From assembly GCA_030704615.1 (NCBI GenBank), contig CM060731.1, forward strand, positions 65,658,001 to 65,722,000: a DNA stretch of 64,000 nt, in the 5' to 3' direction. Numbering within the stretch: position 1 is the stretch's first letter; every line of letters begins with the position of its first letter. A program made the position numbers and the translations under genes. The notes under the pieces are model-generated. The model was not told where the DNA came from and made no database searches. It worked only from the letters and a program-made list of their open reading frames with translations. Positions 1 to 33,781 of the stretch are shown here, piece after piece. The DNA is from Takakia lepidozioides (taxonomy: Eukaryota > Plantae > Bryophyta).

Positions 1-1463
1 TGTAGGTCCAATCTGACCTCCCGATGCCAAGATACACAAAAATGCAGATGCGTGCCATCCCGGCACCATCTCCTCGTCCGTCTCACCATGCCACCGAGCT
101 CCAGTGTCATCCTGCTGGCTCATGCATGGATTGCGACTCAATCCATCCGCATCCCGATTGACCAAACCCGGTCGATGCACAACCTGAAAGTCATACTCCT
201 GGAGTATAAGTGCCCACCGTGCAAGCTTCCCCGTAAGCTTGTCTGACTCCATCAACCACTTGAGTGGCTGGTGATCCGTGACAAGGGTGAAAAGATTGCC
301 GTATAGATAGCACCTGAAGTGTGCCACGGCCCACACTGCAGCTAAGCACTCTCCCTCATATGAGCTGTACTTAGCCTCTGCAGCGTTGTTCGAGCGGCTA
401 GCGTAAGCCACTACGAACTCTCTTCCCTCATCATCCACCTGTGTGAGCACCGCTCCAAGCCCCAGCATGCTCCAATCCGTATGCAGCTGAAAGGGACGCC
501 CCCTGATAGGTCGTCTCAAGATAGGCGCCGAGGTCAACCTCGCCTTGAGCTCTTGAAAAGCTCGTTCCTGCTCATCTTCCCACTGCCACTCCTGGTCCAC
601 CTTGGTCAGCTTGGTTAGAGCCTTTGCAATGGTACTAAATCCCTTGACAAACCGTCTATAATAGTTTGCCAACCCCATGAAAGCTCGAACTCGGCTCACA
701 TCCGTGGGGCGTGGAATTTGTGCAATGGCCTCTACCTTAGTCTGCTGTACCCCAATCCTCCAGGATATCATGTGACCCAGATACTCAATCTGGTTGTGGA
801 AAAACTTGCACTTCCCCGGATGCAACTTCAATCCGTGCGCTCTCAAGCGCTCCAATACCACCTGAAGGTGTCTCTCATGCTCCTCCATCGTAACACTAAA
901 GATGATGATGTCATCTATGTAGCACCGAGCAAAGTCCACCCCTGCTAGAATCCTATCCATGACTCTCTGAAACTCTGCAGGAGCATTCTTAAGCCCAAAT
1001 GGTAAGAACCGCCACTGATATAGGCAATCCTTGCCGTGCTCATTGATCCCCCAGAATGCCGTCTTCTGCTTGTCCGCCTCCTTGATTGGCAACTGGTGAT
1101 ATCCGGATCGTAAATCCAAAGTGTGCTAAAGGCCTTAGCATGCCCGATGGCATCAAAGATCTCCTCTGGTGTTGGCATGGCATACTTATCGGACTTGGTC
1201 TGACGATTTACAGGCCGGTAATCACCGCACATACGTCTCTCCGTCCAATTGCCATAGACATCCTTCTTGGCTGGCATCACTGTGGCTGAAGCATACTCTC
1301 CACCAGAGAGCTCCACCAAACCTGCCTCCCAGAGATCTTGAGTCCTCATCTGAATCAAAGACCTCTCCATGTCACTGTATCTATAGGGTCTCCGAAAGAT
1401 TGGCGTGTCAGTGGCCAACTCAATACGGATCTCTTGACCCTTCAGTGCTCCCAAGTCCTTCAA
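1..1463 (-). CDS. Reverse transcriptase and RNase H domains of element A pol (frameshifted)
   Basis: RMCGDYRPVN, LPFGLKNAPAEFQ and YIDD motifs; RNase H reads TDWS..GLGAVL, YSSYEGECLAAVWA and LARWALILQEYDF. Confidence 0.92.
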
Positions 1464-1909
1464 ACTGAAGGCAAAGCAATTCCTGTAAGCCCTCAGGAAC
1501 CGCCGTATACGTCGTCTCTCTCCTCCGGTGACAATGGGTCCAATGTCAGGCTCCCAATTGTCCTCCGTAACTACAACCTTAAGTCCAGTGGGCTTAGAGG
1601 TAGAGGACGCGTCCCGTGGTTGCTATGCTGCAACCTCTTGAGCAGTACTCCCCTGCTCTCAGTCAATGACAAGGCATCATCCTGCCCCATCATCTCATCC
1701 TTGAGGACCTCCTCAACTCGAGAAGAATCCCCAACCTCATCCATCACAGCCGCCTTGGCTGCCAACTCCCTCTGAACCTCGAGCACCTCCCACGTGTGCC
1801 ATGGATGCATGCACCCCGTGGTCCTCATATGCTCGCCCCCACTCACTGCCTGTACCGTCTCGGTAGGCAGAGAGACCATTGAGGGAAGTGTATTCCGCAC
1901 TCTGCGTTG

Positions 1910-2870
1910 CTCAGCTAGAGCCAAGCTGATAATCCAGGTCAAGCAATTGAGATCCATTGCTTGCCCCAACACTTGACGACGTGATGCCTCAGAAAAGAGA
2001 CGACACCGCCGTGGTACCAGTGGGTAAAACCCATTGCCCGCTCACGCTCGTCAGCATTAGGCTCCACTAACTGCTGCAACTGAGCATCCCACAGGAGGCC
2101 AGGTCCACTATCCCGGAAAGCATGCGATCCTGGGAAGCTGAGCAGTGTAGGTAATGCTGCTCGTGGTTGACCCACCTTGTTGACCACTGCCAAAGGCGAA
2201 CGGTCATCGTGTCTCACACGTTGAGACTGCCTCCCTGTGTCCAGAATGTTATCCACTGTGAGATGTGCTGGCCGCTGCACCCCATCAAATGCACGCTTGA
2301 GCAGTGCGGGTGGCATCATGTTAGTCCACCATAGCGTGGACGATGAGCCCGTGACCCCACTGTAGCTGCATCTAGCAACACTGCTGACCCAAGCCACGAC
2401 CGGACTTGATGCACACTGGCCATCACCCTGGCCCGAGAATCGCCCATCAGTGGCACATTCTCCAAGATGTATGCTGGAGATACAGCTTGATGAAGCTGCA
2501 AGTGGCGCAAAACCCGCACCATCTCCCAAAACAGACCCGACCTCGAGTCTCGCAATCCATTGCCATGCCCGGCTGATGAATGCCCTTGGCAGGGCCAACC
2601 TGCCACTACCAGATCAATGGAGCCAACCCGCTCCAAATCCTGCGCCCCCAGCAACGAAATGTCTGCTGGCAAGGCCTGCTGATATCCACGAATTGCAGAC
2701 ACCGACAACAACTCAGGGTACCGCTGCACCAACTGAGCAACATGGCGAAGTGAAACGCGTCGTGCAGTCTCATCCCTCTCCACATACAGGTAACGCCGAA
2801 CTCGTACACCTGCTGTAACACAGCAGCCAATCCGGTGCTGATCCCCCAAACAAGTCCAGAAGACAAATGC
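1910..2870 (-). CDS. DNMT3-like DNA (cytosine-5) methyltransferase domain embedded in the gypsy polyprotein
   Basis: Joining ORFs 2770-3396, 2606-2866, 2316-3140, 1939-2598 and 1571-1972 across 1-bp slips gives, in order: motif I LLDLFGGIST, II YVERD, IV AGWPCQGHS (PCQ at 2586-2594), V RSGLF, VI ILENV (ENV at 2454-2462), VIII DAATVGSRAHRPRLWWTN, IX ERERAMGF and X LGQAMD. Confidence 0.92.
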
Positions 2871-3289
2871 CTTCATCCGGAGACTGCCACACAATAGGTG
2901 TGGTGTCCAATGGAGACAATTGAGGTGGTCCTGGTGCAATCCCCACACTCTCCTCCTCTCCTGACGGTACAAAAGCCTCCACCCAGGCTTGTTGCACCCG
3001 TCGATCAGCATCCCGCTGCAAATCCTTGCTCGTGCCCCACAATGGAGTCTGAGCAACCATGGTAGGCAACTCCGCCATACCATACATGTCATCCTGCTCT
3101 CCCGGAGGTGGTACATCCTCTGAATGAGCATTGCCCTCAAGCAACTCTCTAGGCCAACTCACTGCCGCTGTGAATGCTGCTAGTGTCGGCATCTTGCCTC
3201 GCTGGGCAACCGCAACTCCTCCTATGAACGTCACAGGGAGCTGCACACGCCGGCCCTCCCCTGACTGCCATGCAGGCCTATAGGAAGCT

Positions 3290-3700
3290 GACTCCTCCCA
3301 AAAATCCAGGGTGAAGCCCATGGGGTACAACACTGCCCCACCAACCAGGACATCGTATGAGACTGCGTCTGTCACAATGGCCTTGGCTCGCATCACTGAG
3401 CCATCTGTGTAGGGTGATCCGGCCGTAGTCTGATAGCCAACTCATGCCGTGTCATGCCCCGAGCCTGCTCCGATCCTCCCAGAGACGTCTGTATCTGGAA
3501 AGGACAAGGCTCCATATCCGCCTCCGTGAGGCCCAAGCCTGCAATAGCAGCTCTGCCCAGCATCAGTGGCTGAGCTCCCGAGTCCAACAAGACTCGCAGT
3601 GGCCGGTACCTCTTGCCTGCCGGTCCACTCAAACAGAAAATGCCATCCTGGTTGTCTAACATGACAACTCCAGGTGTCACCATGGCGCGCTCAATGGCTG
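3290..3700 (-). CDS. Retropepsin (aspartic protease) domain of element A
   Basis: RVLLDSGAQPLMLG active-site motif and downstream YDVLVGG. Confidence 0.85.
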
Positions 3701-4349
3701 GCCTAGCTGGCAGCTCCATCAACCTGGCAGCTGCAGCTTGCCATGGCGCCGCCGTGGCAGTCTTGACCCTCAAATCCGAGGATCCCTCCGGCACTACACC
3801 TCCCACTATCTCCGCAGAAGATGAAGTACCTCCCCACTCTCACAGAGTGTAGCTGCCAGCCTGAACACCTCAGCTGGTCTTACCCCCGGCGTCGCAATCA
3901 TGGTAGCCGAGAACAATGGAGCCTGGCACACAGATGTGGCCGCTCCTAGCAGCACACTAGCTGCCGTAGCCTTGGCAACACTAGGTAGTGGTGCTACCCG
4001 TGTAGCTCTCCCCAATGGCATAGTAACCTCCGCCTCGGTAACAGTCGGGCGAGAACTAGGTGCCATGGATGGCGTCGACACTGTCTCCGCCAATGTGAAT
4101 GACTGAGGAAGCCTAGCCTGACGGCTTGCCTCCCACGCTGTGGATCCAACTCCACCTCTGCACCTCGTGGCTCAGGAACTCGTGCTCCTCGAGTCACGGC
4201 TGCAGCAGACTCCACCTGCACTAGTGGTAGTGCTGCTCCACACATGAATCCCATGCCTCCCATATCTCCTCCCTCAGGAGCAGGAGGTGGACCATCCGGC
4301 CTTAGAGCCGGTACCACCTGAGCTGTAGCCATGGCAGCGAGCCTCTGCT

Positions 4350-5818
4350 CTAGCTGCTGAAGCCGGTTGGCCATGCCTTGGTCAACACCCTGACCTCCGC
4401 GTCCTTGGCCACGTTGAGCTTGCCCTTGGCCTGCACCTCGTGGCTGGCCACCTCGTCCTCTCTGGGCTGCTCCACCTCGCCCCCGGCCACCATTGTTCCC
4501 TTGGAACTGGCCTGGGCGCAACTCAGGATGCAAACATAACACTGGGCCTCTCCATGCCCGTGTTTGCCACAATGCCCACACTGTAACTGTGCAGGCTGTG
4601 CATGTGCCGGCCCTTTGCCTCCCTCTGGACAATCCTTCTTGACATGGGGTCCTCCACATGTCCAGCACACCACATCCGCCCGTTGTTGGCCAGCAAATGA
4701 AGGGAGAGACCCCTGCATCTGAGGTCCTCTCTGCCCTTCCCTGAGCTTCACCTGAGCCCCCTTGTTGCCTTGAGCACGTTGAGGTAGTGGTTGGCTAGGA
4801 GCACCACTACCCCGTGGTGTCTCCTTAGCAAATCCCACCATGACCACTCGTTCCTCCACCATGTTGAGCTCTATCCGCTCTGCCAGCAAAAAAACATTTG
4901 CTAAGGTGGGTTGGGCCGCTTGTAGGAGAGTTGCATCCCGCACCCTTCTCCTCAGCTCCTTGTCCAATATCCCATACCAGAATTGGACTGCCTGAGCTTC
5001 CGTAACCCCTTGGGTTACATTTATCAAGCGCCTCATGCGAGTGAAAGCCTCCCTCAAGCTCTCGGTCGGCTTCCGTTGGAACTCTTGCAAGCTCCGCAAC
5101 TTCTCTGTCCTCACCCCTTGGTAGTTCCCTCTCAACTCTTCGAAGAACTCCACAACAGGGTTGAAGGCAGGCACGGGTGCTAGTGCTGGTGCGGTAGTGG
5201 CTTGGGTGGACGTCGTAGCTACTGTACCACCAGTCCCACTGCTGCTTGCTGAAGCTGCCGGTGCAGCGGCAGGTGTAGCCACTGCCCTCGTGGCTCTAGT
5301 GCCCCTAGTGATGGAGACATAGTCGGGTGACCAGTACATCCTCCACTCCTCGATCTCAACCTCATGCCCCCGCCTGAACTCATGGTAATCATCCATAGGC
5401 GGCCCCTCAAGGTGCTGAAACAGCCCTTCCATGCCATGAAAGGCGTAAATAGTTGTGGATTGCGCATTTGCTGCAAATCACACCAACTATCAAACTCTTG
5501 GATAAAATCATCCAACTCGATGGTGCCCACCGCCCCAGAGTACCTTCGTGGCCCCTTGGTAGCTCCATACATCTCCTCCATTGTGTCCCACAATGGCAAA
5601 GAAACAACTTGCACCGCCGGTATGAGTCCTCCTGATTCACAATCCGAATCAGAACCTTCCGTAGAAGACACAGGAGGTGAAGGTGGCCTAAACCGCACAC
5701 CTCGTCTCGTGTACCCACTAGTATCGCTAGTGCTCGAACCGGCACTGTCCCCAGCAACTAGTGGCACCTCCGTGTTGACACTCAACCGGTCATGAACATG
5801 TCCTAACCCCCTCTTCAC
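4350..5818 (-). CDS. Gag of element A (frameshifted)
   Basis: Gag-like core (FQRKPTESLREAFTRM...FWYGILDKELR) with zinc knuckles CWTCGGPHVKKDC and CGHCGKHGHGEAQC. The start position is uncertain. Confidence 0.85.
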
Positions 5819-6499
5819 AAGGTAACCGGGTAGAGAACCTGTTGCGGCTTATGGTTTGGAATACTAAGTTCCTAACATAGCCTACACCTGTACCTGCATC
5901 CACCGCAAGCACTCCTATGGTTGGCTGGTCATCACCTCCAACCTCACCAGGAGAAACAATGATGGTCTGGCTGGTCATCACCCAGCCTCACCATCGACAG
6001 CATGCTCTAGGACTGGCCGGTGATCAAATCCGGACCAATCACCTATAAAAACAAGCGCCCACAAAAACTAGCATGGCGCACAGTCAAGCATGCAGGTATG
6101 GAGGGGATCCAAACACAAGAAATCAGATCGACAACTCCCCCACACCAAAAACAACTCCACGGTGTTGCTCCTGCAAGGACACCCCAGCCCAAACCCGGAC
6201 TGACTCTTGCCTCCACCTACGGAAAGGTCTTGGCCTAATGAGAGGGTGGAAACTACGAGGAAGAGAAGCTAAAGCAATGCCTAACCCCAGCATGCTCTCA
6301 TCCCAACACTCTGCCTCCTCTCTACCCTCACTTGCATGACCATGGGAATATCATGAAGATACTCCTCAAACCGCCCTCCACGAGCTTCAAAATTCGGCCT
6401 TCCAGACCACATGCCAGTCCTTAGGCAGTCCACCAGTGCCTCCACGAGTCAGCACAGGCCGTCCACAGGTCAACACGGGCCACCACAGACCAGCACAGG

Positions 6500-7430
6500 C
6501 CCACACAGCTCACTGGTCACAACCGTCACAGTCCCACAGCCACTGGGCACAGTCACAGCCTGCCTCAGGCACGGCCTGTCACAGCCCCTCACAGCCCGTC
6601 ACAGAGGCCACATCACAACAACAGCCCCAAAGGCCACACGGCCTGTTCACAGTGTCCTCACATCACAGCCCCAAAGGCCTCAGGCACGGCCTGTCACAGC
6701 CCCTCACAGCCCCTCACAGCCTCAAAGGCCTCAGGCACGGCCTGTCACAGCCCCTCACAGCCCCACAGCCCAAAGGCCACACGCCTGTCACAGGCCCGTC
6801 ACAGCCCCAAAGGCCAGGCACGGCCTGTCACAGCCCCTCACAGCCCGTCACAGCCCCAAAGGCCACACGGCCTGTCACAGCCCCTCACAGCCCGTCACAG
6901 CCCAAAGGCCTGGGCACGGCCTGTCACAGCCCCTCACAGCCGTCACAGCCCCAAAGGCCACGGCCTGTCACAGTCACAGCCCGTCACAGCCCCCCTCACA
7001 CGGCCTGTCACAGCCCTCACAGCCCGTCACAGCCCCAAAGGCCATGGGCACGGCCTGTCACAGCCCTCACAGCCCGTCACAGCCTCAAAGGCCTCAGGGC
7101 ATCACAGCCCTCACAGCCCCAAAGGCCATGGGCACAGCCCACCACACAGCCTGTCACAGGTCACAGCCCACACACAGCCCATCAGCCCGTCACAGCCCCA
7201 CACACTCACATCACAGGTGCCTCACAGCCCGTCAGCACCGTCACAGCCCCACAGGCAGCCTGTCACAGCCCCTTCAGTCACACAGCCCGTCACAGCCCAA
7301 AGGCCTCAGGCAGTCACAGCCCCTCACACACAGGGCCTCACAGCCTGTCACAGCCCCCTCACACACAGCCTCACATGTCACAGCCCCTCACAGCCCGTCA
7401 CACAGCTTGCCACAGCCTGTCACAGCCCAC
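6500..7430. repeat. Degenerate minisatellite built from TCACAGCC / GGCCTGTCACAGCCC units in the 5' UTR of element A
   Basis: Dozens of copies of tcacagcc interspersed with cccaaaggcc and cacggcctg. Confidence 0.9.
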
Positions 7431-8686
7431 ACATGGCCGCTCTGGCAGTTTAGCCATTTCTCCAAGGGGTTTAGCCACGCCAAGCTAGGGTTTGTGTCTC
7501 TTGGACTCTAGGCTTCTTTCCACCGAGCTATGGTGGCTGTGAGGAAATCAGCAAGGTATCCTTGCTCTTTCGGCTCCCACACACCACCATAGTAGCCCTA
7601 AGCCATGAGGTGGTTGCCACAAACCAAGCCTTCTTTCTCACTTAGCCTCCCCAAACACGCCACTAAACTCAATGGCAAACAACCAAGCCCTGCTGGTTCC
7701 CAGCCCTTGTGAGCACTCATTCAAGCACTCTCATTGGCCATAACATCTGTCTTAGAGCCTATTCCAGCCCTCTACACCTGTTGCTTCAAGAGTTGCGCTC
7801 CCTTCAAGCTTGAAGTTGAAACCCCAACTCACATAGGCCCTACAAGTGCTTTTCTTTCACTCCAAGTGGAAACCAGCCCTAGACCTTCCGTTCTAGCTCT
7901 CTAAGGCTTGAAAACAAGAGCCTCAATGGGCTGAAGGCATGCTCCACACATGCCCCACTCTCACCATAAGAGAATCAGCTCCTTTGCTTCATTTCTTGCA
8001 CCCACAAACCTGAAAATACAAGCTTCAGCAGGCTGAAAGCATGCTCTACATGCCCTACAGGGAAACCAGCCCCTTCCTTCCTTCCTTGCACTCCCACACC
8101 TAAAAGTGCAAGCCTTCACCAGGCTGATAGCATGCTCCACACATACATTGCCCTCACATAAGGGAAGTCAGCCCTTCCCTCTTCCTTGCTTGCCCTCCAA
8201 GCTTGAAGATGGAAGCTTCAATGAGCTGAATACATGCTCCACACATGCAACCTCTTCACACAAGAGATATCAGCCCCCTATCTTGGCTCCTTGGCTCCTT
8301 GATGCTCTCTAGACAAGACTAAGCACTCCACAGCCTTTGCCAAGCTCCTGAAACCCTAAGGCTTACATTTCCAGCCACAAGACACTTCTCTTGTGGTGCA
8401 AAGCTCTTTTCCAAGCTCTGAAACCCCAGGTGCACATTCCATGGCCTTGCCGCACCTCTTAGCTCCTGTTCCAGCCCCTGCAGCATGGTGCTTTCATCTC
8501 TGAAGCTGAAGATCGAATGCCAAGGTCTACCACCTCGTAACCCACATCGCCTCCGCTTCTAACAACCAAGAGCTCCATGGTGCTCCTTGCATAACAACTT
8601 GGTTTCTCTCAATCTCAAGCAAAAACCACAAGTGCTACAACTAACTCGTATCTAGCACTCATAGATACGAGCTGATCTTTCTCGAG

Positions 8687-9003
8687 TGATAAAGAAGAAG
8701 AATACAAGCACAAGCTCACAAATCTGAAGCATAAACTCATGCATATATAACCTCATCACTCAAATACAAGTCAAGCCAAGTGCACCCCACGCCATGGGGA
8801 ATCCACACTACGGCGCCATAGCTAGGCGCGGTGAGGCTCAACTCGAGAAAGATGAGCCTCCCGCGCTTGCCGTGAAGATAACCACTCCAGGGCCTAAATC
8901 TGCCTTGACCCCTGGATTGACACTTGGGCCAATCCCAAATGTCAATATGTAAAAGATAGCTATTTCCTAGCTAATTTCACACTAGTGGTAAAATAACTTG
9001 ACA
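8687..9003 (-). repeat. 5' LTR of element A (317 bp, TG...CA)
   Basis: Minus strand reads TGTCAAG...CTTTATCA. CSI1 coding sequence stops at 9004. An independent copy of the LTR 3' end (9679-9751) ends at the same TTTATCA. Confidence 0.8.
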
Positions 9004-9670
9004 GCTGAATACCACCAGCCTCAGCCACTGCACGCTTGTTGGACCGGCTGTTGCACACCAAGTTTTGCAGTGCGCACACGGCCACCATCTTCATTTTGGT
9101 TGATCCTCCAACAAGCTCACCAAAGCACGACAGGCTGATACTGCATCACTACTGCGAGACAGGCCCTGATGCTGAAACAGATCCCCTAATGCCAATGCTG
9201 CCAACAGCCTTGCTGGCTGCATTCGTGTCTGTGGGTCGAGCAAGTACTGTGACAAGATGCAATGGCAAGTTTGGCCACCTCATGTCACGAACTTTGACGT
9301 TGTTGAACAAGGCCTCCACAAGGCGTGCCGCAGTTTTCTCGCACTGATGGCACCGTAGTAGCTCCAACAGTGCCTCCACTGCACCTGTCTCAGCCATGCC
9401 TTCAGCACTAGATGCATTATCCCTCTCCAGAACTAGCAGTGCACTCAGTGCCACCACCACTGTTGCCTCATAGGTTGGGCGCAGCAACTTCACAAGCACC
9501 GCAACTGGTACTTTGAGATAATACTGTGAGCTGAAACGGAGCACATTGGAAAGCACCAGTGCTGCTGCTTCCAAAAGGGCATGTGGAGGCTGAGGATCCA
9601 CTTGCAGAATGAGGGCGGAAAGCTCCACTATGCCCCCTGCATCCGCCACTGCATTGGGCCAACTATTTGA
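9004..9670 (-). pseudogene. CSI1: Fragment of CELLULOSE SYNTHASE INTERACTIVE 1 / POM2 family ARM-repeat gene
   Basis: [12 protein letters not shown]...ALSALLVLE...[27 protein letters not shown], then in another frame [30 protein letters not shown], matches the C-terminal ARM region of CSI1 as I recall it. It is frameshifted and cut by LTR sequence on both sides. Confidence 0.85.
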
Positions 9671-9678
9671 TGCTCTCT

Positions 9679-9751
9679 GTGATGAGGTTATATATGCATG
9701 AGTTTATGCTTCAGATTTGTGAGCTCGTGCTTGTATTCTTCTTCTTTATCA
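9679..9751 (+). repeat. 3' end of an element-A-type LTR in inverted orientation
   Basis: Reverse complement of 8687-8759 (73 bp, 1 mismatch). Confidence 0.9.
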
Positions 9752-9752
9752 T

Positions 9753-9940
9753 TGTGTGGACTAGTGACTGCCATAGTGGGCAGCATAGTGGCAGCCTAGT
9801 GACTGACTAGTTGTAGCCTAGTGGTTGGACTAGTGGTTGGACTAGTGGTGGACTAGTGGTATACTAGTGTGTGGTGTGCACATGTGTTGTGTGGTTTTGT
9901 ACAGTGATGTAGTTGTGTAGCGATACGTATGCGCACGACA
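9753..9940 (+). repeat. Solo LTR related to the LTR of the PHD-gypsy fragment
   Basis: TG...CA termini. The 3' end GATGTAGTTGTGTAGCGATAYGTATGCGCACGACA is shared with the reverse complement of 32614-32650. Internal GACTAGTGGT repeats. Confidence 0.7.
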
Positions 9941-10988
9941 AGGTCGACAACGACTTTTCATGTGAGTAAGTGCTAAACCCTCTTTGGGAGCCATACTCAA
10001 TTTCTCAATAACATCAAAGTTACAGTAATAACTTTTTCAGGCTGTCTTTCAGGAAAGGCAGCGGTGGATCTTCAGGAGATACAGTCATTTCTGGCGAGTC
10101 TGTTTTTCGACAGCCCCCTTTCCAATTTTCTGCTTCTTGTTTATGCCGAAGCAATGGCACTTCACGCGGCCGAGTCCCTATCCCCTGACTTTTTACTGCC
10201 CAGCCGTAGGTGTATCCAGCGTGGATCCGGTGTTCTAAAATACTTAGACTTAGATGCAGAGGAAGCGGGGATACATTGTACTAACTCTGAGTCAGACTGA
10301 ACTATATTCTTTTAATATTCATTTTCATACTATCTGGAAAACATTGAATCCCCTTCCTCCGCCGTAGTTGTTCCTTTAGAACAAATAATAAACACATAAT
10401 CAACTTTCATTTAAATTGCAATATGTATGAATCCATCTCACAAACCTCCCTGACTCTTCTCATATCCATTGTGCATTCATCTACAGTGTATTCATGCGTG
10501 TGCTCCATTCATGAATGTTTTCCTTTGTTCAACATCCATTGTACATTCATCCTCTGTACTCTTTAATCCACCCCACAAACCTTCCACACTCATTTCATAT
10601 ACGTTGTGCATTCGTCAAAAGTTTTGGTCATGCATCTTCCTGTCATGAATTTTTGTCATTGCTCGACATCCATTATACATTCATCCATTTTACTCTTATC
10701 CATCCCTCATTCATCCATCTACATTCATTTTTCACACTCATCCATCTGTTTATCATCCAACTGACATTCATCCATCCTTTATTCAATGACTTTTATTATG
10801 TCGTCCAGCTTGTTTCCGCGGTAAAGGGTGCCAATCCGCGGGAATACACTCCACTTCTTTCTGGGCGCGTGGTGACGCGGCCTTCACGTGTGATGACGTG
10901 GAGTGAGCCCCGTGACGTGGCATTGGCGCAAAGTGACGTGGCGTGAGCGCTCACGCGCTCACGTGACCAGGCTCACGCCGAGGCATCC
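9941..10988. mobile_element. Right-end remnant of the Mutator-like element (copy A)
   Basis: Near-identical to 46561-47612 and followed by the same CTGGGCTGAAAT (10989-11000). Confidence 0.88.
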
Positions 10989-11255
10989 CTGGGCTGAAAT
11001 GGAGAAGTACCATTTGTGTGGGACTGATGAAGAGCCGCACACGTGCGCTAGTGTCGCGCAAGCCCTCTGATGCGCGCAAAAAAGACGACGCAAGCTGGGC
11101 ATGGGGTACGGTCTGATGAGAGAGGCGCATGCTGTCGGGGTAAGAGTGATGGGGTCGGCAATGCAGGTTGCACAACTGGAGAAGAAGTGACTGGCGTGGG
11201 ACCTCGAATCCTACCTGAGAGGCGCAGTGGGGGAGGGCTCAACAGACACTGTGGG

Positions 11256-12037: not shown

Positions 12038-14384
12038 ATGGGGTCGGGCAAGCCAAAGCGAAAGCGGAACGGCCCAAAAGATGATGATCCTGGTGAGCCC
12101 GATGGGGGCGACGTGTCACGAGGCGGCCGTTTGAGGAGCGATGCACGTTTCCGAAAACGAGGCCGCTCAAGAGCGGGAGGAATCCGAGGAGTCGGAGCCC
12201 GAGGAATCTGAGAGCTCCGACGACCAACAGATGCCTCCCATGCCGGCAGCCTTTTGGGAAGGGTTGTTGGCGCAGTTTGGCGGGACGCTGAAAGACATGT
12301 TGAGGGCGGCTAATGCCACTTCCACTAAGGCGAAGTTTAAGGTGAAGCCTAAAGAACCAGGCACCTTCGAGGGCGTCCGAAATCGGAAGGCACTCAACAC
12401 CTGGCTCTTGGAGCTAGAGCAGTAGTACTTCCGGGCGGCCAAGTTGAGTGACGAGGATCGGGTGGAAGTGGCTCCCACCTATTTGAGGGGCTATGCTCAA
12501 CAATGGTGGCAGAAACGCCTTCATGACCGAGGTCCAAGCCCGGAAACCTTGAACTGGAGTGGGTTCAAGGAATTGATGAAGAGACAGTTTGTACCCCTCA
12601 ACGCGTCCTGGCTTGCCCGGGACAAGATGAGGAATTTGAAGCAAACAGACGACATTCGGGGATATGTCCAGGCTTTCAATGTGCTTTTGCTCGAAGTCGC
12701 GGACATGGCAGAACCGGAAATGGTCTTCAACTTTGTGGCGGGACTGGCCCCATGGGCCAGGCGGAAGTTGGAGGAGAAGCCACCTAAGACTTTGAACGAG
12801 GCAATTTAGAGGGCTGAATGTTTCTCAGATGTCCCTAGGGGTGAAAGACAAGGCCGTACGGAGCTGAACCACAAGAAGACCCGGCGGGAAGTGACTCTTT
12901 TCGACCGGAAAAGAAGTGGGATAGGCCACGCGGCGACAATGGCACGTGGAAATCGAAGGGAGGGCCTTCACACGTCAAGGCGGCACCCGGTGCTTCGAAA
13001 GGAAAAGTGGGTGGAGCGGCTTATGGCGGACAGAAGGCGACCTTTGATGGAGTGTGTTTCAATTGCGGAGAGCCCGGGCACATGGCCAAGAAGTGCACGA
13101 AACCCCGACAATTGAACATGACTCGGGCAACCACGGAGCTGTCGGAAGATACCATCAGTCGCTTGGTGGAAGCGGTGGTCGCCAGGACTTGCAAGGTAGG
13201 CAAAATATTCTTGTGAGTTGTATCAGGAAACTGGCGCATTGCGTAAAGGGAGTCACTTATTGTTCGTGGATGGGATAATATCTGGAACTAACGTGTCGTT
13301 GTTGGTGGACATAGGAGCGTCGCACTCCTTTGTGACACCGGCAACGGCACAAAAGTTGGGACTCCCGACAACTGACGTAGGGGCCTCTATTGAGGGCGTT
13401 CTGCAAAAGGAGAACCGCAATTGGCAACGAGGTTGGCGTTCGATGTTCCTCTTCAACTGGGGAGTTGGGAGGGACGTGAGAACTTCACCGTCTGCGAGAT
13501 CGATGAGTGGATCTCATTTTGGGGATGACCTTTTTGAGCAAATCCGGAGCGGTCATAGATGGCCGCAAGAGGGTAGTCACGCTGCCATGTTGGAATGGTG
13601 GCGAGGTCTTACGAGTTTCGGAAACGCCCAAACCTGTGGAGGGCGAATAAACCTTCTGTCAGCAAGGGAGTGGGCCGTGGAGGAGGCACACGAGCCCCAG
13701 TTTTTGCTCTACATTAGAGAAGTGAAGGGAGAAGGCGATGGAGAGCCGAGCCCAGATTGGATCAAGGGGATTTTGGAGAAATACCATGATGTGATGCCGG
13801 AGGATTGCCAAGCGGCTTGCCACCGCGAAGAGGAGTTGACCACAAGATTGAGGTGATACCGGGATCGGAACCGCCTGCCAAGGCGCCCTACCGGTTGAGC
13901 CACAGAGAGTTGGTCGAGCTGAAGACTCAGCTCAAGGATCTAATGTCAAAGGGGTACATCCGGCCGAGTAAGTCACCTTACGGAGCCCCGGTGCTATTTG
14001 CAGACAAGAAGGATGGGACGCTGCGGATGTGTGTCGATTACAGGGCTCTGAATAAGGTGACTATCAAAAACCGGTACCCTTTGCCAAGGATCGACGACCT
14101 TTTCGATCGGTTGGCAGGGAGCGAAGTATTTCAGCCGGATCGATCTGCGCTCCGGCAATCATCAAATTCGAGTGGCGGAAGGAGATGAGGAGAAGACCGC
14201 GTGCAGGACGAGGTATGGTTCGTATGAGTTCTTGGTGATGCCTTTTGGGCTCACCAACGCACCCGCGACCTTTTAGCACGCTGATGAACAGCCTTTTCCA
14301 AGAGTGGTTGGATGACTTTGTGATCGTGTACATCGACGACATCTTGGTGTATTCAAAAACAAAGGAGGAGCACCTGGAGCACCT
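12038..14384 (+). pseudogene. gag-protease-RT (N-terminal part) of element B
   Basis: Retrotrans_gag-like region, CCHC knuckle, [22 protein letters not shown] and [10 protein letters not shown]; stops and frameshifts present. Confidence 0.9.
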
Positions 14385-15599
14385 GACCGTGATGAGTCCC
14401 AAGACTCCCCACGACTCCCACCACGAGGTCTCCCCCCATGGTGAGTCCTATGCCACCCCCACTAAGTCCCACTAAGCTACCACCACCCTTGTGGAGCCAC
14501 CCCCACCGCAACCCGGTGTGCGGGGCTCCACCTAGTGAGCGCCTCCGCCTCCTTGAGTGCCTTGGGCACTCAAGGGTGCTTCAGCCCCCCATACCTATCG
14601 CTGCCGCTGCCCCCACCACAGGGGCAGCCCCTCATGTGTCCCGACCCCCCTGCTCTCAAGGCAAGGGGGCGCGACACACACCCCTACCAACAGGGAGTCG
14701 ATGTCCTCATCGACTTGTCCATTTGTAGAGAAACGAACATCCAAGTTGTGGCGTCCCACATCAAGGAGTTTGTTTCCGTACCATGGCGTCCCATGGCAAA
14801 GAACCAAACCCCACACTTGACTCTACTCTCCACTAGCTAGTTCGGCCGACTTCCTCCAAGTCCCGGCCAAGGGTGGAGCCTCTCCAGCTCCTCCCAGTGC
14901 ACTCTTCTTGGCCTACTTCAAGGCCAAGGAACGATCCTCCCCGAGGATCGAATCGCCTTACTGCAACAACATTGCTTGCGACCGCTCATGATGCCGCTTT
15001 TGGCATCACCTTGAGCAAGGGTTCACCTGGAACCCTCTTTGACTAGGAAGATAACCTTGAACCAACCGTGCGCCCCAATCATTACAATTGGGTCCGCCTT
15101 GGAATGCTGGCCTGAGGTACGGGAACACGCCGAAGCCGCACTACGACTTCGTCCCGAGGCTACACGATTATAGTACGTGAACGGAAGCACGTAGCTTCCG
15201 CGTTAGCCCGCACTACAAGGCAACCCCCTCGGTAGCGCAGTTATAGTACGTGCACGCGCCAGGTGCGCACTAGCACGTGAACTCCCAAAGAAGGCGCAAG
15301 TTTCCTTGCCCCTTGGATGGGGGTCACCCGATTTCGGCACTACGCAAACACACGATTAACCCAATTTACCTCCCCCACTTTTATAAGCTAGCATGCATTC
15401 TACACACTAGCCAACCATACCATGCATCACCATTCCAAAACAAAATAGGACGCACAACATTTGGAAGCCATTTCATTTATAGCACGTTTTGTACAATACA
15501 AGTTTTTGCAATCGGATTCCTAAGCTAGCTAAGCCGGGCTAAGCATGCATTTCCTCCCCCACGCTCCAAGGTTGATGTCCCCATCAACGCTTCTTCCGC

Positions 15600-17765
15600 T
15601 TTTAAGGTCGCCCTTCGAAAGCTGCAACCGCCTCGGATGCGTTTCCCATTTCTGAGGCACGCCCAAGATGCCTCCACTGATGATAGCCCTTCCATTTGAC
15701 GAGATACTCCGTTTCTCGGTTCTTGAACCTCCTCGACTTAAGTATTGCCTCCACCTCGTACTCAGGTTCATTTTCATGATCCAACAGCATAGGTGGCGGA
15801 CGCAACACTTGATGCCGATTCGGACGCGCTTCATCTTTGAAGTAAGGCTTCAAAAGGGAGACATGGAATACTGGGTGCACCTTGCTTTGCCGGCAGCTCC
15901 AATTCATACACATCCTCATTCATAACCTTCCGAATGCGAAAGGGTCCCGCATACGGAGGTACGAACTTCGGACTCACTTCCGGAGGTAGTCGGAAATCTT
16001 GATGTTCAACCAGACCTCTGTGCCTGCCTCAAACTTCACTTCCCTCCGCTTCCGATTCGCCTGCCTTTCATACCGTTTCTAGCTTTGGCAATGTTGTACT
16101 TTGCGAGCTTCAACAAACGCTCGCGTTCTTCCAGTACGCCTACTGCCGGTTCCTCAACGTCCTGGGCGGCCCAACTTGTCGGCACCAGAGGTGCTTTTCC
16201 ATAGACCAATACGAAAGGGGAAACTCCCGTTGCGGAGTGTTCTGTGTTATTATAACAGAACTCTGCCGCGTCTAAGTGTTCCACCCAGTCTGTTTGGTCT
16301 GCCGACACGTAATTCCGCAAGATCTGCTTCACTACGGAATTCACTCTTTCTGTTTGGCCGTTGGTCGTAGGTCGGAAGGCGGTGCTCATCTTCAGCCTCG
16401 TCCCCATCTTCTTCCAAAGTGCCCTCCAAAATTTACTCGTAAACTTTGGATCGCGGTCCGAGACAATATCCTTTGGGACTCCATGATGCTTTAAGACGTG
16501 GGCGAAGTAAAGTCGCCCTGTTCCTGTGCCGTTGTCGTCTCCTTGGTGGGGATGAAATGCCCATTTTACTGAACCTATCCACCACCACCATGATTGCATC
16601 GAATCCTTTTGACAGCGGCATAGCAGTCATAAAATCCATCGAGACGCTTTCCCAAGTCCCCTCTGGAATCGGCAAGGGTTGTAACAGCCCCGCTTGCTTT
16701 TTGTACTCGCTCCGGTTTTGTTGGCATGTGGTGCATGTCTTGACATACTCCTCTGCCTCTCCCTCAGTTTGGGCCAGAAATACTCTTTCTTCAAGAGTAC
16801 CGCAGTGCGCTTGGCTCCGCCGTGGCCCGCAAGCGGGCTATCATGGCATTCTCTCAAGAGGCTATCTCTGATCCCTCCCTTCGGCACGTAGAGACGTTTT
16901 TGCTTATACCGGAGCAGTCCATTTTGCAAGTGGAACTGCGATTTAACCCCCATCCTCAAGTCCTGCATCACGGACTTCGCCAGCTCATCCTTCGGGGAAG
17001 CCTTCCGGATCTTCCTTTGGAGCGCCGTCTCGCCCTTGTACACCAACAAGAGCTGCTGCTTTCTACTTAAAGCATCGGCCACCACGTTGTCTCGTCCCGG
17101 TTTGTACTGGATATCCACGTCGAACACCGCCAAAGTATCTTGCCACCTAAGTTGTTTTGGGGACAACTTGGCTGCGTGGCAAAATACTTCACCGTGACAT
17201 TGTCCGTGAACACCTTTACTGGTTGGAACCAACATAGTGGCGCCAAAGCTCAAGACAGTGCACCACCGCCTTCATCTCTTTCTCGTGCGTCGGCCACCGT
17301 CGCTCCACGTCATTCAGTTTCTTACTTTCGTAAGCCACTGGACGTCCATCTTGCATCAGTACACCCCCAATCCGAAGTCCAACGCATCTGTGTATCTCGA
17401 ACGGACGATCGAACTCCGGGATTTTCAAGACTGGAGCTTCCGCCATCCGCTGCTTCAATTCAGCAAAAGCTTGGCCACAAAATGTGTTCCATGCCCAGAC
17501 TTTAGATTTACACAGAAGGTCTGACAACGGCCCGCGATCTTGGCGAAATTTCTCACATACTTCCGATAATAGGAGGCGAGTCCAAGGAAGGATCACACTC
17601 CCGGGACCGAAGTCGGAGGCTCCCAGTCCAAGATCGCCCTCACCTTTCTATATTTTGATCCTATCCTGTGTAATCACATGCCCCAGGAACTCCACTTTTG
17701 TGACCCCGAATTCGCACTTTGAAGCTTTGGCATACAGCTTCCCTTCTCGCAATTTCTGGAACACC
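15600..17765 (-). pseudogene. Inverted RT C-terminus, RNase H, integrase and chromodomain of element B
   Basis: HDSPLAGH zinc finger, SMDF, VSDRDPKF, NGQTERVN, and chromodomain EYEVEAILKSRRFKNRETEYLVKWKGY. Confidence 0.92.
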
Positions 17766-19481
17766 GCCGTGGTGAGTGGGCCAAGACTCACCGCGACTCA
17801 TCACCGGGAGTCGAGGGTTTTCGTGGTGGTTCGCCATAAAATGGCATGGCTGGTTGTGAAACCCCCGCGGACAGCTACAGAAGTATATATAGGGAGTAGT
17901 AACCCGAACGGTGCAAGCCCGTTGGTGACCAAAACTAGTGAGTAAGCGAGCGAGCCGGAAAGCGACCAAAGAGTGGGAGCTGTTCCGGACTGCCATCTAC
18001 CAAAGGGAATTCCACAAGGCCCAAATAGGTGGAGGGTTTAGTGGGGGAGCGAAGGGGGACCGTTATGTCCCGGTGAGCAGCCGAAGCTCCAAGTTGGCCC
18101 GGCGGCCAGGTTGGGAGTCAGGCGCGCGCATCAAAGCGAGTAACTATGACTTGAAGGGGAGTTTACCGAAGTGAGGTGCGCGACAGTGGGAGTTCTTCGG
18201 TCGGTGGGGCGCCAATGGAAGAACCTGGAATCAGCGGTGGAGAAGACCGTTGTGAAGAGACGACTCTTCTTGAACTTGGTGTCTGGAGCTTGGACTCTGG
18301 TGCGCATCAGGAACATGTGAGCTAGGGTAGGGGTACGTTGGCGTTGGGGTCTTCCAAGAGGAGCAAGTTTCTAGCAGGAGCAGTTTGCGGCTGTGTTCAG
18401 CACCTCTCGTTGCTCTGGGGAGCGAATTGTCAGGGATGGTGGAGTAGGCGGTAAAGGGGTTGTGGTGAGGGCTGGAGCTGGCTGCCTGTACGGCGTCGGG
18501 GCTGAACAAGCTGGGGGACGAGCCGATCGAGGCCGCCTGACCGGCGTGGGGCCCACTGTTGCACAACGTCCGCTTGCTCGCTTAGCGCTGCTACCGCTGT
18601 CGCTACTGCCAACACCTCCACTAACTTGGTGGCGCTGCAGGCCTTGCCGAGGTCTGGCGGCGACGCCGCTCATCGTACTTTTCACTTCCTTCTTTGTCTC
18701 TCTCGCCCTCTAGATACGATCGCACACCCGAAAAGCCAAAGGACAGCCTTCACCGGCGTTGGCGCTCTCTTTCGCTCAGTGGAAAAGCACAGTGGAATTC
18801 ACTTTCTAAAGGTCTCGTTGCTTCCCTACTGCCACAAAATACGGACGGAGTGGAAATTCCATCCGGGACATAAACTGGCGACGCCATAAGAATCAAGAGT
18901 CAAAGGTCCAAACTCACTTGAAATTCGAACCGCTCTACAGGACCACCATAGATACATCAGACGAGAACTTAGGGAAACTTCACGTGAGGCAGTCATGGAA
19001 ACCAGCCAACTCTTACAGCAAAACTCCAGTTCTAACGAGAGAGAGAGAGGAGAGGTAGACTTTGTCTCTGACTGTTGCGATTTACCGACGTGAAGATTCC
19101 AGATCAAGAAGTGTGGCAAATTGTATCAGTGACCACTTGCTGAGACCAAGCAAGAAAGATTAGCATTGTACTTCACGATTACAACCTCTCATTTTTTAAC
19201 AAATGACTACTACCTAGCACACACAATAACCTCCTACCGCAATAAACAACCCATTTCATTCACTATTTTCTTGACTCTAAGACAGCCCTCCCCTTAAAGA
19301 AAAGCCTGGTAGCAGCACTCTGCATGGGGAATACCCTCCTAATTCAATAAACCAGCCCCCCCCTTAAAGGAAAGCCTACTAGCACTTTGCTACGAACTCA
19401 ATGAACACCTTAGTTGACTCTCAGGCAACACCCCTTCATTGAATATTGGAATGTTCACATCAAAAAAAGTATTAAATACCG

Positions 19482-19554
19482 TGCGGCGAGCGTGGATCGA
19501 ACACGCGATCTTCAGATCTTCAGTCTGACGCTTTCCCAACTGAGCTATCCCCGC
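19482..19554 (-). tRNA. tRNA-Phe(GAA), variant or possible pseudogene
   Basis: GCGGGGATAGCTCAGTTGGGAAAGCGTCAGACTGAAGATCTGAAGATCGCGTGTTCGATCCACGCTCGCCGCA (73 nt). Upstream TATA-like tract and downstream T7 terminator. Three differences from the usual plant cytosolic tRNA-Phe as I recall it. Confidence 0.9.
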
Positions 19555-20249
19555 TATACAGACCAATATACTAACCGCTCTCTATATATTTACTTTATCA
19601 GCTAAATCTATAGACAGGAAAACATAATGGAGAATCGACGCTTTCCCCCCCTGAATTAGCTTTGCTTCCGTCGGCTCGAGGAACATGAAGACGAGGAAAC
19701 AGTGGGAGAATTTGCGAGAGCCCAGCTGCTGCGAGATACCATCGTTCCTCGACAATTACTTTCTTCTCACTCGCTGTGGCCCGTACGCTATGCAACTACA
19801 CGGAAGCGGGATGGGTAGGCAATGTGAGAGCGGATGGATTGTAGGAAGGCGTGAGTTCAGAATTGGCAGAGCATGAAGCATCGTGGTTGCAAAGTTTTGC
19901 GGGCTTCTGTGCTGAATTGGCGGGGTGGCTTTTGAGACGCCGTCTCTTGGAATATGCTCAGCTTGGGCATGCATATGAGGTAAGGGTGAGTGTGTATGTG
20001 CGTGTGTGCTTTTTCTGTATATAGGTTGTTGAAATTATGCACGGAGAGGAAGCATGAGCTGAAGAGTTTCCGTGTTTATTTGGGCTCAGTAGTTCCACCT
20101 TAATTGGGGCACAGAGAAAATTGTTGTAGGGATCACCAGTTGGATACATCGTCAGGAAGGACATTTGTACTGTCTGCGTATCTGAAGTGGCACAGTGGTC
20201 ATCCGATTGGCACGACTTCGTTGTGTCCAGTTTACCCCAGTGCTTCAGA

Positions 20250-20252
<3 letters not shown>

Positions 20253-20293
<41 letters not shown>
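20253..20293. repeat. (AG)20 microsatellite upstream of the lipase; (AG)14 in the duplicate at 49938-49966
   Basis: Direct reading. Confidence 0.95.
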
Positions 20294-20296
<3 letters not shown>

Positions 20297-20444
20297 ATCC
20301 GGGATTCGAATTCTGGGATCAGTGATTGGGCCCCACTGTAAAAGGAGAGCTTGTGGGATCAGGTCTCAGTTATCCTTTGCCTCATCATATAATTTCTCTT
20401 GTGCCTGGTCGCCTTCTCATTCGTGAGCGAGAACAGATTGGAGA

Positions 20445-23400: not shown

Positions 23401-24760
23401 GCGAACTATGGTGTTCAAGACATTGAGATTATCACATTTGGGCAGCCACGAATTGGGAACTCTGTGTTTGCAGTATATTACAATGAGCTTGTCCCTCGGA
23501 CTATTCGAATGACACATGCCAACGATCTGGTGCCACATCTGCCTCCCTATTACACTCTGATAGGCCCACGTTCCTACCATCATTTTGCAACTGAGGTATG
23601 TGTGTGTGGCGGTCAATCATTTCTGTATGTTCAGAGCTTATGCTAAATTTGGCAGAAGTGTGGACCTTTTTTAAAGAATGTTTTTCTAGGAACATGAATG
23701 TGTCTATTCAGTTGGAGAGTCTCAATCTTGTCATATATTGAGATGCTACTGGCTATATGCAATTTTGTTGCTGATGTTCTTTGTTCACACTTGGTAGGTT
23801 GGTTTGGTTTTTGCTTCAGGGGCTTTGTTTGTCAATAGTGCAATCAGTCTGTCCTTGCATGAGTACAGTTATGTATTCATACATATATTGTGTGCTTCAT
23901 GTATCATGTATTCGACTGACATATTCTAAATTTTGCTTGCTTGATGCACAGGGTTGACATCCAGCTTAATATTATCTGGGTTAGACTGTTGAGTATACGT
24001 GAATAGAGATTGATGCATCAAAGTTGATGCAGGTGTGGCTCTTCAAGATTGCTGTGGGTCGTCTGCAGTATGAGTTTGAGCGGGTTTGTGACAGTTCTGG
24101 GGAGGACCCTACCTGTAGCAGGTCGGCTTTCTTTCATCTCTTCCACTTGGCATTCTATCTTCCTCTTTCTCTTTCCCTCTCAACACTCCCTTCTAGTCAG
24201 TCAAAAACCATGGGGTGTACCTCTACTGAAAGGTTGCTGAAAGAATGCAAACAATGTTCCATTTAGAGAACAGGAGCACTATCACTGACATTGAATTCAT
24301 TATGTGAACAATGGATTTTTGGAAGATTTCAGTCTGTTTCTACAGCTTCAAAAGACCATTTAATTCCTCTACTGGGGTTGGAGTGTTCCATCTGAGAAGG
24401 TTGCTTGGGCACACCTGTACAGACCATTGGGGTTTTCCAGATGAAATTACTATTTTGTTACTCTGCGGGACTACTATCTAGCTCAAGGGCTACCTGCAGA
24501 GTAACAGACGGGGTGGACGGCAGGGAATTAAGGGGGAGAAGAGCAGGCATAGTGTGCTTATTTGTGGTTCTCACATTCATTTCGAGTCTTATGAATCCTG
24601 ATATTTTATGTTGCCTGTTGGCTATGGGAACGGTGCAGGTCAGTCAAAGGCAACAGCATTTCGGATCATCTCAACTACCTTGGTGTCTACCTTAGGACTG
24701 AAGACAATATAATGGCCAGAGACACTGAATTTCTCAAAGGGAAATCTTTGCTTAATTCCA
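20445..24760 (+). CDS. Secreted class-3 triacylglycerol lipase, about 10 exons (copy 1; possibly disabled)
   Basis: Signal-peptide exon, then YNRTMALILVEYASA, VDVQHCLQ, IAFRGTQES, VHQGFYSAY, GHSMGG nucleophile elbow, TFGQPRIGN, NDLVPHLPP and SISDHLNY (Ser-Asp-His triad). Introns are mostly GT-AG. The 3' end is approximate. Confidence 0.9.
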
Positions 24761-31958: not shown

Positions 31959-32613
31959 GTTGCTGCAGATCGTTCCTTCTTGTGAGATAAAAAATTTAGG
32001 ACACCACCAATTCGACAAGGAAAACCGGAGCAAAGTTGTGCGGTCTTGGTTATAAAACAGCCATCTACTGCAACAATACGGTGCACAATGGTGCAACTCC
32101 TATTCCTCATATTAACTCATTGTCCACCATTCCGGTAGTTGCCTTTACAACACCTTTCTCTCTCAACATCACTCACCCGCTCCAGGTTAAATTGATTTAC
32201 TTGAGAATCGGTTCCTCTCTATCTATGCTCTCATCACCTTGTGCACTCTCTATGGTGTGTTGGCGGGGATGGGAGACTGAACCGGACTCGGATTCCGAGG
32301 ATGGAGATGATGGATCAACAATTCTTGAAGGAACAATCTACATCATGGATTTTGTACATACATTGAAGGTATGTGCATTGTTAAGTCAAGAATTTATACT
32401 TTTGAATCTATACTTTTCTCTACATACAAATGAATAGAATCCAATCAAGCTTGTTTTCATAGTATCCAAATTAGATTGTTGCACTTTTTTTATCAGATGG
32501 AATACAATTTTGAGATGAGGTTTTGATGTATGCATGATATGAAGTATGATGAACGCATATCAAAAAATCGACAAAATCATCAAAGAATTACAAAATTTGG
32601 TCATTACAACATG

Positions 32614-33540
32614 TGTCGTGCGCATACATATCGCTACACAACTACATCGATGTCCAAACCACACCACGCATATATGCACAATAAAGTAGTCTGCCACAAT
32701 CGCCCCCCTAGCTGGTGGATAGGTCCCTCTAACTTCAGATAGCTACAAGATGTAATAGCCACAGCCGTACTAAGTCCTCTATCACTGTCCCTATTGTACT
32801 CAAACTCTATAGACCAAGAGGCCGGTACAAGAGTAGCCCCATCGTTAGTCGCCGTCTTACAATCTGTGAACTTGAGCCATGATCTCGTATGTTCAAGGTC
32901 TCATAGTAGCTTGGCCTTGCGTTTCTTGTTAGCCTTCCATGGTTGTATCCACTCCCACTATCCAATGCAATGTGGACATAACCAATCCCCATCCGGAACC
33001 ATCTCAAGAGGTGGAGTCAAGCATCCCATATGCCAACCTCTAGAGCATCGATCACACACCAGCATGGTGGCTGCCCCTCTAGCAGACCCACACAACATGC
33101 ACCTCAAACTTGCAGATACCACTGCCAGGTTTTGGTCAATCCTGCCATCGACATTCGGAAGGTGACATGGCGCACAATTACGCACATGATCCTTCCAAGT
33201 TATGCCATCCCGACCCTCCAAGATCAAGACGCCTGAGGGCAAGACCTGCCCGTCTAACACGTCCTGCAGTCACATCCAAGGTCGTAGGAGCAGTCTGCTG
33301 CAGATAGACATAGTCACCAGGGTTGAATCTCCGAACCCCAGGACGATAACCCCCACCACGTATGGTAGCATACCTCAACGTATCACGATGTTGTGCAATG
33401 GCAAGGTTCTCGAAAGCCATGGGCATGATTTTTTTTGAACAACTCTGCACGCTGCTCACATGCACGTGCCCACACGTCCGGATCGTCAAGGTTAAGAATT
33501 GTAGCAGGATCGCCTTGTTGCCGGGTGCGCCCTCTACGCT
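32614..33540 (-). mobile_element. 3' end of a Ty3/gypsy element: integrase C-terminus, PHD finger, PPT and 85-bp LTR
   Basis: AFENLAIAQHRD...FNPGDYVYL, then C4HC3 PHD CMLC...MLVCDRC..GWHMGCL.PPL..VP.GDWLCPHC. PPT AGGGGGGCGA precedes LTR TGTGG...CGACA (32698-32614). Confidence 0.85.
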
Positions 33541-33724: not shown

Positions 33725-33781
33725 ATGACTGAACGAAATGTGATGTCGTGCAATTCATTGATCGCATGATATGCTCAGCAT
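33725..33781 (+). pseudogene. PLS-class PPR motif fragment (duplicate near 57372-57428)
   Basis: MTERNV(M/V)SCNSLIA*YAQH matches the plant PPR consensus M.ERNVVSWNALIAGYAQH. Confidence 0.6.

Follow-up and report, generated by a model that had tools for sequence, protein, structure and literature searches.

Why transposons keep a silencing enzyme of their hosts has been a question since 2018, and genetic tools are scarce in the algae known to carry such elements. A 64,000-nucleotide stretch of the Takakia lepidozioides genome (GCA_030704615.1, contig CM060731.1, positions 65,658,001 to 65,722,000; hereafter the window) raises it in a bryophyte, since a preliminary description had placed a DNMT3-like cytosine methyltransferase (DNMT) inside the Pol region of an LTR retrotransposon. 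Using Marchantia proteins as tblastn queries, we located a Ty3/gypsy element on the minus strand, with gag at 5581-4536, protease (PR) at 3725-3396, DNMT at 2871-1910 and reverse transcriptase (RT)/RNase H (RH) at 1560-1. The gag-PR-RT-RH-integrase (INT) order of Ty3/gypsy elements is present in the window and its relatives together. The features of the element and of two remnants in the window are:

8687..9003, minus strand: likely 5' terminal repeat A, 317 bp, starting with TGTCA at 9003 and ending with TCA at 8687.
5849..8686, minus strand: putative 5' leader; a degenerate tandem array is seen at 6438-7427, and family-level depth extends up to 6200, the edge of the stretch compared.
4536..5848, minus strand: Gag with two zinc knuckles, opening ORF1 and frameshifted in the window copy; 53-78% identity to Marchantia P0008 over 5581-4536.
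3396..3725, minus strand: aspartic protease in ORF1, LLDSGA motif near 3584; 55% identity to Marchantia P0008.
1910..2871, minus strand: DNMT3-like C5 cytosine methyltransferase, closing ORF1 as its final domain, with intact motifs I-X and four 1-bp slips.
1626..1909, minus strand: variable linker closing ORF1.
1617..1625, minus strand: conserved in-frame stop (TAG 1625-1623) in the readthrough-type context TAG CAA CCA.
1510..1612, minus strand: RNA stem predicted to form over a long range downstream of the stop, with arms at about 1612-1596 (5') and 1526-1510 (3'); support for the prediction is mixed.
1..1622, minus strand: ORF2 with RT and RH (RVT_1, E 1.5e-29; RT_RNaseH, E 2.3e-36), continuing past the window edge.
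9679..9940, plus strand: remnant of another copy, the end of repeat A followed by repeat B.
32612..33505, minus strand: 3' remnant of a related copy with integrase C-terminus, PHD finger, purine tract and repeat B.

The matches of Retrotrans_gag (E 0.0024) and Asp_protease_2 (E 0.0051) to the window lay under their cut-offs, curated in the case of gag, and the protease of relatives P0035, P0048 and P0210 passed. Integrase and a PHD finger complete ORF2 in three relatives (L024, L074 and L087); the chromodomain found at the integrase end of chromoviruses such as Tcn1 and Chlamyvir is absent, and the PHD finger stands there instead. The window element contains at least 13 small indels. Because many of them fall in homopolymer runs, and because just one stop, the TAG at 1625-1623, interrupts the 1,487 window codons that could be mapped to a near-intact relative, long-read assembly error is a likelier cause than decay. 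In the linker, about 90% of the depth of run X3 (17,863/19,885) carries an indel relative to the window at 1657, so the frame offset of the window there is not the state of the family.

The methyltransferase reads, in minus-strand frames, from motif I (LDLFGG/ISTG, from 2871) and motif II (YVE) through motif IV (GWPCQG, PC at 2594-2589), motif VI (ILENV, 2462-2454) and motif VIII (DAATVGSRAHRPR/WWTNM, 2380-2320) to motif IX (ERERAMGF) and motif X (LGQAMDLN), which is the canonical, non-rearranged order of C5-methyltransferases. Frame changes occur near 2846, 2334, 2022 and 1993, with no internal stop, and PF00145 (DNA_methylase) matched 2319-3158 on the minus strand at E 4e-13 (49.9 bits; cut-off 22). 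The earlier statement that ordered motifs lie between protease and RT on the same strand, broken by 1-bp slips alone, was thus borne out. In a search of solved structures with a profile of nine relatives, DNMT3A ranked at the top (E 2e-20), then DNMT3B, with DRM at 5e-9 to 1e-4 and HhaI/HaeIII at 4e-7. An AlphaFold model of the L024 domain (pLDDT 76.7, pTM 0.82) likewise found DNMT3A/B as its best fold matches (DNMT3A 6f57, E 5e-20, TM 0.82 by target). With DNMT3A/B ranking as the closest solved relatives by both profile and fold, the enzyme can be classed as DNMT3-like, as first proposed, by this ranking and by its motifs. Of 80 loci, 77 retain the catalytic Cys, and of 81 loci, 79 retain the Glu of ENV. 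A search of a viral collection gave weak phage-type methylase matches only, and none with the RT query.

The term LTR retrotransposon holds for the Ty3/gypsy domain order, the TG...CA ends and the target duplications, but not for an ordinary LTR pair and primer site, since the direct repeats are split. They are arranged as A-coding-B-A-B in relatives L048, L074 and L079 and as A-coding-B in others; split repeats of this kind are likely to be missed by ordinary LTR finders. Relatives begin with TG(TCA) and end with (G)ACA, and an exact 4-bp target duplication was found in 8 of the 11 having both ends; the 3' end of the window element lies beyond the window. Junctions of A with B and of the purine tract with B are present in the window remnants (9679-9940; 32612-33505). 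No tRNA primer site (TGG) was seen after repeat A in the window or the relatives. Repeat A of the window agrees with that of the relatives in start, end and length; its boundary is putative because its similarity to the Sphagnum-type repeat A is not significant (score 93.5; shuffled maximum 104.5).

The final 73 bp of repeat A (8687-8759) are found again at 9679-9751, there adjoining a B repeat. Interpretation of this inverted match as a pair of DNA-transposon ends was dropped, because it consists of the repeat A ends of two copies in opposite orientation. Between these two opposed ends of the element family, at 9003-9703 on the minus strand, lies a frameshifted piece of an armadillo-repeat gene, interrupted by the 5' end of the focal element at 9003; an atlas search returned only 'armadillo repeat', and the piece resembles plant CSI1. 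Elsewhere in the window, the block 9941-38447 is duplicated at 46561-62179, with 95-98% identity in the pieces 9941-11255, 18183-27537 and 33631-38447 and with different inserted elements in each copy. A LINE-like RT (33631-35661 and 57278-59300) and a SWIM-finger transposon-like region (36300-39540 and 59364-62179) each occur in two copies, and pieces of a second Ty3 family at 13200-17764 and 63168-64000 have neither methyltransferase nor CpG depletion.

Two runs of one sample placed 64,487 and 71,399 contigs on window positions 1-6200, with cover in all 30 bins and evenly across gag, PR, DNMT and RT in both, and the DNMT domain is a standard part of a high-copy family; run X17 yielded no aligned contig. 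A metagenome scan yielded 146 relatives, of which the best 80 were used. Among these, 78 loci form a Sphagnum-type family, in which four of the five loci checked match a Sphagnum troendelagicum protein at 86-92% identity; L024 and L040 make up a second family, and the window represents a third. Of two prokaryote-genome scans, the first gave no match and the second gave one weak match together with L087, a fourth, distant family with 52% DNMT identity to the window. L087 is a eukaryotic retrotransposon contig in a prokaryote genome record, and proteins P0053 and P0254 are likewise labelled bacterial; contamination is the likely origin of these labels. Named relatives belong to Marchantia polymorpha, Calypogeia fissa and three Sphagnum species, and those nearest to the window element are bryophyte elements at 72-74% identity. 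The occurrence in land plants, for which the preliminary description knew of no well-characterised case, is thus supported. One Marchantia cluster contains, among 15 listed members, five intact Gag-PR-DNMT ORFs of 1,278-1,281 aa.

Between families synonymous sites are saturated (pS 0.65-0.76), and DNMT pN is 0.17-0.25, with dN/dS at most 0.08-0.20, a constraint comparable to that of protease and gag; against the distant L087, pN is 0.35-0.37 and pS 0.69-0.75. Within the decayed Sphagnum-type family dN/dS is 0.47-0.92, as expected after insertion. Neutral evolution, which the preliminary description had named as an outcome that would overturn its reading, does not fit the values between families, and judged by these substitution rates the domain is under purifying selection there. 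In decayed Sphagnum-type copies (L001-L080), changes of CAG to TAG and of CGA to TGA occur at high rates, a pattern that CHG and CG methylation by the host would be expected to produce.

DNMT and RT share one frame and are separated by a single in-frame stop. Of the 58 loci aligned, 55 have a stop at this codon (40 TAG, 15 TAA) and none has CAG, CAA or TGG there; two of the exceptions (L026, L029) are alignment edges with the stop present, and one locus has TAC. At all other stop-rich sites of the alignment the majority is a sense codon. No variant of at least 1% was found at 1616-1628 among 771 aligned contigs of run X3, and in four of four families the stop is kept in frame with RT while synonymous sites are saturated. 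In L087 ORF1 is unbroken, and after TAG CAA TCA the frame stays open for 1,047 codons, as far as the PHD finger. The location inside Pol is consequently only partly right: the domain does lie between protease and RT on the same strand, but the conserved TAG parts it from RT, so there is no single Pol ORF. In the same way, the continuous gag-PR-DNMT-RT frame under selection that had been envisaged stands as to selection and fails as to continuity, since ORF1 stops after DNMT.

Conservation on this scale leaves very little room for a one-off capture of a host DNMT3 piece, or for a chance stop in a decayed copy. The small indels of the window copy would suit such an origin, but both domain and stop occur throughout the family, no insertion boundary of its own was seen around the domain, other copies differ from the window at its frame-break sites, and the DNMT and RT trees group the same elements. 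Together with the selection between families and the state of L087, these observations refute it; the methyltransferase is encoded by the element, as the preliminary description had it.

Among 153 proteins of at least 1,000 aa with a full domain, 33 read Gag-PR-DNMT and then end, and RH precedes DNMT in 93. In a tree of 64 DNMT domains (quick IQ-TREE, SH-aLRT support, without bootstrap), the window falls in a 30-row clade (SH-aLRT 97) in which none of 27 database proteins runs into RT, two of these being cut inside or right at the domain. Of eight sister rows, six contain RT and a seventh reaches the RT N-terminal motif. Since none of these clade proteins reaches RT and sister rows mostly do, the stop looks like a derived trait of the window's clade; it was read from DNA in the four families and from protein ends in the other members. 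Six Marchantia and Sphagnum gene models left out of the tree (P0010, P0014, P0024, P0025, P0029 and P0209) fuse DNMT to downstream Pol domains with joints at differing places, and these fusions may be read as predicted introns.

A quick IQ-TREE of RT agreed with the DNMT tree: the window grouped with L024, L011 and Marchantia (99), separate from a chlorophyte-type branch (100). In this sister branch the order is RT-RH-DNMT-INT-PHD, with the DNMT3-like domain after RNase H and in some members a G-patch, and many domains have EC instead of PC. Its named members belong to Chromochloris, Monoraphidium and Haematococcus, and it includes P0117, P0256, P0276, P0279, P0220 and about 90 unnamed proteins. 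Across the protein set 555 cluster representatives match the domain at E 1e-30, and the chlorophyte branch suggests that the association of DNMT with retrotransposons spans green plants.

How RT is made behind such a stop is suggested by its context. UAG-CAR-YYA is the readthrough signal of TMV type (PMC2194720, PMC3159437), and the element reads TAG-CAA-CCA in the window and L024, TAG-CAA-TCA in L087 and TAR-CAA-CCC in the Sphagnum-type family; the signal is exact in three of four families and one base off the consensus (CAR-YYC) in the fourth, the largest. CAA-CCC stands in 55 of 60 loci at that codon, and CARYYA accounts for 8 of 2,207 and 5 of 2,059 in-frame hexamers. The peptide after the stop varies (QP, QS) while CAR-YY stays. 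In plant reporters, readthrough was 32% at the TMV site and 11% at the BNYVV site; the inserted amino acid was tyrosine, and readthrough was lost when the first C was changed (PMC2754532). From the sequence context, we consider it probable that ribosomes read through the conserved UAG.

Some viruses add a 3' stem beginning 8-12 nt past the stop (PMC3159437), and the stem predicted here has the geometry of those stimulators: all four families can pair a stretch that begins 11-15 nt past the stop with downstream TG(G/A)E codons. The L087 junction folds at z -4.4, with 1 of 26 L087 control windows folding better, and a joint stem of window and L087 has 10 common positions with 4 two-sided changes. 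Among 10 rows of the three closer families no two-sided change was found, the single-family z values are -1.8, -0.6 and 0.05 (7, 21 and 23 of 200 recodings equally good), and the L024 stem pairs in a shifted register. The predicted stem is suggestive.

Splicing offers another route to RT, in which the TAG serves as a 3' splice acceptor, or the stop is lost with an intron, so that RT-RH-INT comes from spliced RNA. TAG fits the YAG of an acceptor, several predicted Marchantia gene models contain a splice that crosses the site, and Ogre is described as making RT-RH-INT by splicing after GAG-PROT (PMC6317226). We nevertheless regard it as unlikely, because a single stop with open in-frame coding on both sides is seen in four of four families, the 40 nt upstream are only 17-33% U, and a competing AG lies at -4 in the window and -2 in L087. 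Conserved bases 3' of the stop that match CAR-YYA also speak against it, as do predicted junctions that vary among gene models and one 2,173-nt contig that spans the site without a joint, from a run only guessed to be RNA. Under splicing, too, ORF1 would carry the methyltransferase at Gag level. Less probable still is that the stop is not decoded and RT-RH-INT arises from an internal promoter or by reinitiation. An ATG does lie two codons past the CAA in 54 of 58 loci, almost all of them members of a single family, and the Candida Tca2 junction had minor promoter activity, its flanks alone giving no readthrough in yeast (PMC2194720). That ATG is missing in the window, L024 and L087, however. 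The first Met after the stop is at codon 85 in the window, 48 in L024, 3 in the Sphagnum-type family and 117 in L087, with no conserved AUG, and those at 85, 48 and 117 lie beyond the conserved RT N-terminus.

Under readthrough, a minority of the ribosomes passing the UAG would decode it, prompted by CAR-YYA and perhaps also by the 3' stem. Because plant reporters gave 11-32% for viral CAA-UYA contexts, some 3-10 methyltransferases would be made per RT, placing the enzyme at capsid-like amounts, several times more than RT. We favour the view that it is carried into the particle as a fusion with Gag and released by the protease. The chances that it methylates the element's cDNA, as its position on the abundant side of the stop suggests, seem to us about even; in that event a cDNA of roughly 9 kb would be methylated, most likely at CG, before or at integration, at hundreds of sites inside or just outside the particle. 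DNMT3 is a slow, distributive enzyme, and a need for many copies of it would explain why the stop lies behind the DNMT domain. The integrase PHD finger (L074:15863-16036; window 32960-33110, minus strand) is closest to the fingers of KMT2C/D, CHD4, KDM5B PHD1, PHF21A and ATXR5. Several of these bind unmethylated H3K4, as does the ADD domain of animal DNMT3, and the finger would likely read histone H3 tails and pick the target site.

Codon-junction CpG is depleted in the window element (34 observed vs 97 expected) and in L024 (10 vs 108), and other Ty3 pieces in the window show no depletion (51 vs 55). A LINE piece, however, has a CpG ratio of 0.42, other ORFs flanking the loci 0.2-0.8 and L087 itself 0.59-0.74. 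CpG depletion as specific evidence of self-methylation was rejected, the LINE piece and the flanking ORFs being low as well.

With readthrough granted, the domain may still act elsewhere than on cDNA: at the target site, on resident copies in trans as a copy-number control, on RNA, or by binding nucleic acid or silencing factors of the host. Roles of this kind are put forward by de Mendoza et al., who regard the function as unclear (PMC5890265). The intercalating and CpG-reading loops align poorly with those of DNMT3A, and EC replaces PC in 78 of 207 full domains of the protein set, by inspection mostly outside the window's clade. Weighing more heavily on the other side are the catalytic Cys, ENV and RxR kept under selection, the fusion to Gag, which points to the particle, and the CpG depletion in two families, so we give these other targets only a small share of the probability. 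The whole account, a leaky-stop Ty3/gypsy element with a selected DNMT at Gag level that likely methylates its own cDNA, we put at about 0.65.

The closest published system is KnitGypsy-Dnmt3 of the charophyte alga Klebsormidium nitens, with a DNMT3-like domain 'in the Pol polyprotein ORF' (de Mendoza et al. 2018, PMC5890265). As described there, it shares with the present elements the Gypsy class, a non-rearranged DNMT3-like domain, purifying selection and the DIRS-like A-coding-B-A-B repeats (Fig. 4c legend), which here occur in relatives. Compared by that description, our elements differ in belonging to liverworts and mosses and in closing a Gag-PR-DNMT ORF with a conserved stop; a DNMT in one Pol ORF with RT, the KnitGypsy-Dnmt3 trait, occurs only in rows outside the window's clade, and no Klebsormidium-named protein was among the matches listed. 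The Klebsormidium enzyme had no activity in yeast, a result its authors call inconclusive, and SymbioDIRS-Dnmt3 of Symbiodinium methylates CG de novo in yeast (PMC5890265). SymbioDIRS-Dnmt3 and SymbioLINE-Dnmt likewise are retrotransposon-borne C5 methyltransferases, of other element classes or another DNMT lineage, as are the EpiLTRs of Euglena and Cymbomonas, whose DNMT is reported as sister to DNMT4 (10.64898/2026.05.21.726589). The host enzymes PpDNMT3b and MpDNMT3b are of the same class, with de novo CG/CHH activity described for the host enzyme, but have an N-terminal domain and lie outside retrotransposons, unlike the element DNMT (PMC6453930, 10.1101/2021.02.12.428880).

As to the stop, TMV-type sites, SIRE1, MuLV and Tca2 have an in-frame stop as here, with CAR-YYA and a 3' stem in some viruses; that of SIRE1 lies at pol/env and those of MuLV and Tca2 at gag/pol, whereas here it follows the protease and an added enzyme (PMC2754532, PMC3159437, PMC2194720). 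Ogre and Bianca share the division into an ORF1 of GAG-PROT and an ORF2 with the rest, but their ORFs are given as 172-274 bp apart, Ogre with an intron and neither with a methyltransferase (PMC6317226). Papers of 2025 and 2026 mention Gypsy-DNMT3 in 'streptophytes', citing or echoing the 2018 work, and name no land plant in those passages; further literature drawn on comprises PMC12344493, PMC11982613, PMC9915684 and PMC6673714. The titles and abstracts searched, outside subscription journals and Repbase, gave no account of bryophyte DNMT-carrying elements or of the conserved stop.

The elements described here extend Gypsy-Dnmt3 elements to land plants, with a likely readthrough switch behind the methyltransferase. 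More tentatively, and on odds somewhat below even, an ancient green-plant lineage would have shifted its translational switch, which first followed Gag, to a place after a captured DNMT3, so that enzyme at capsid level methylates each cDNA before integration and the PHD finger steers it to chosen chromatin. The position of the stop predicts a greater need for methyltransferase than for RT and integrase; this is open to measurement and restricts the functions that the enzyme could have. Element ORFs of this kind may be mistaken for host DNMT3 genes. The lineage is present in Marchantia polymorpha as 'hypothetical' genes, and methylation mutants exist in that species; if the account is true, self-methylation of a transposon would become testable in a model land plant through the intact Marchantia members.
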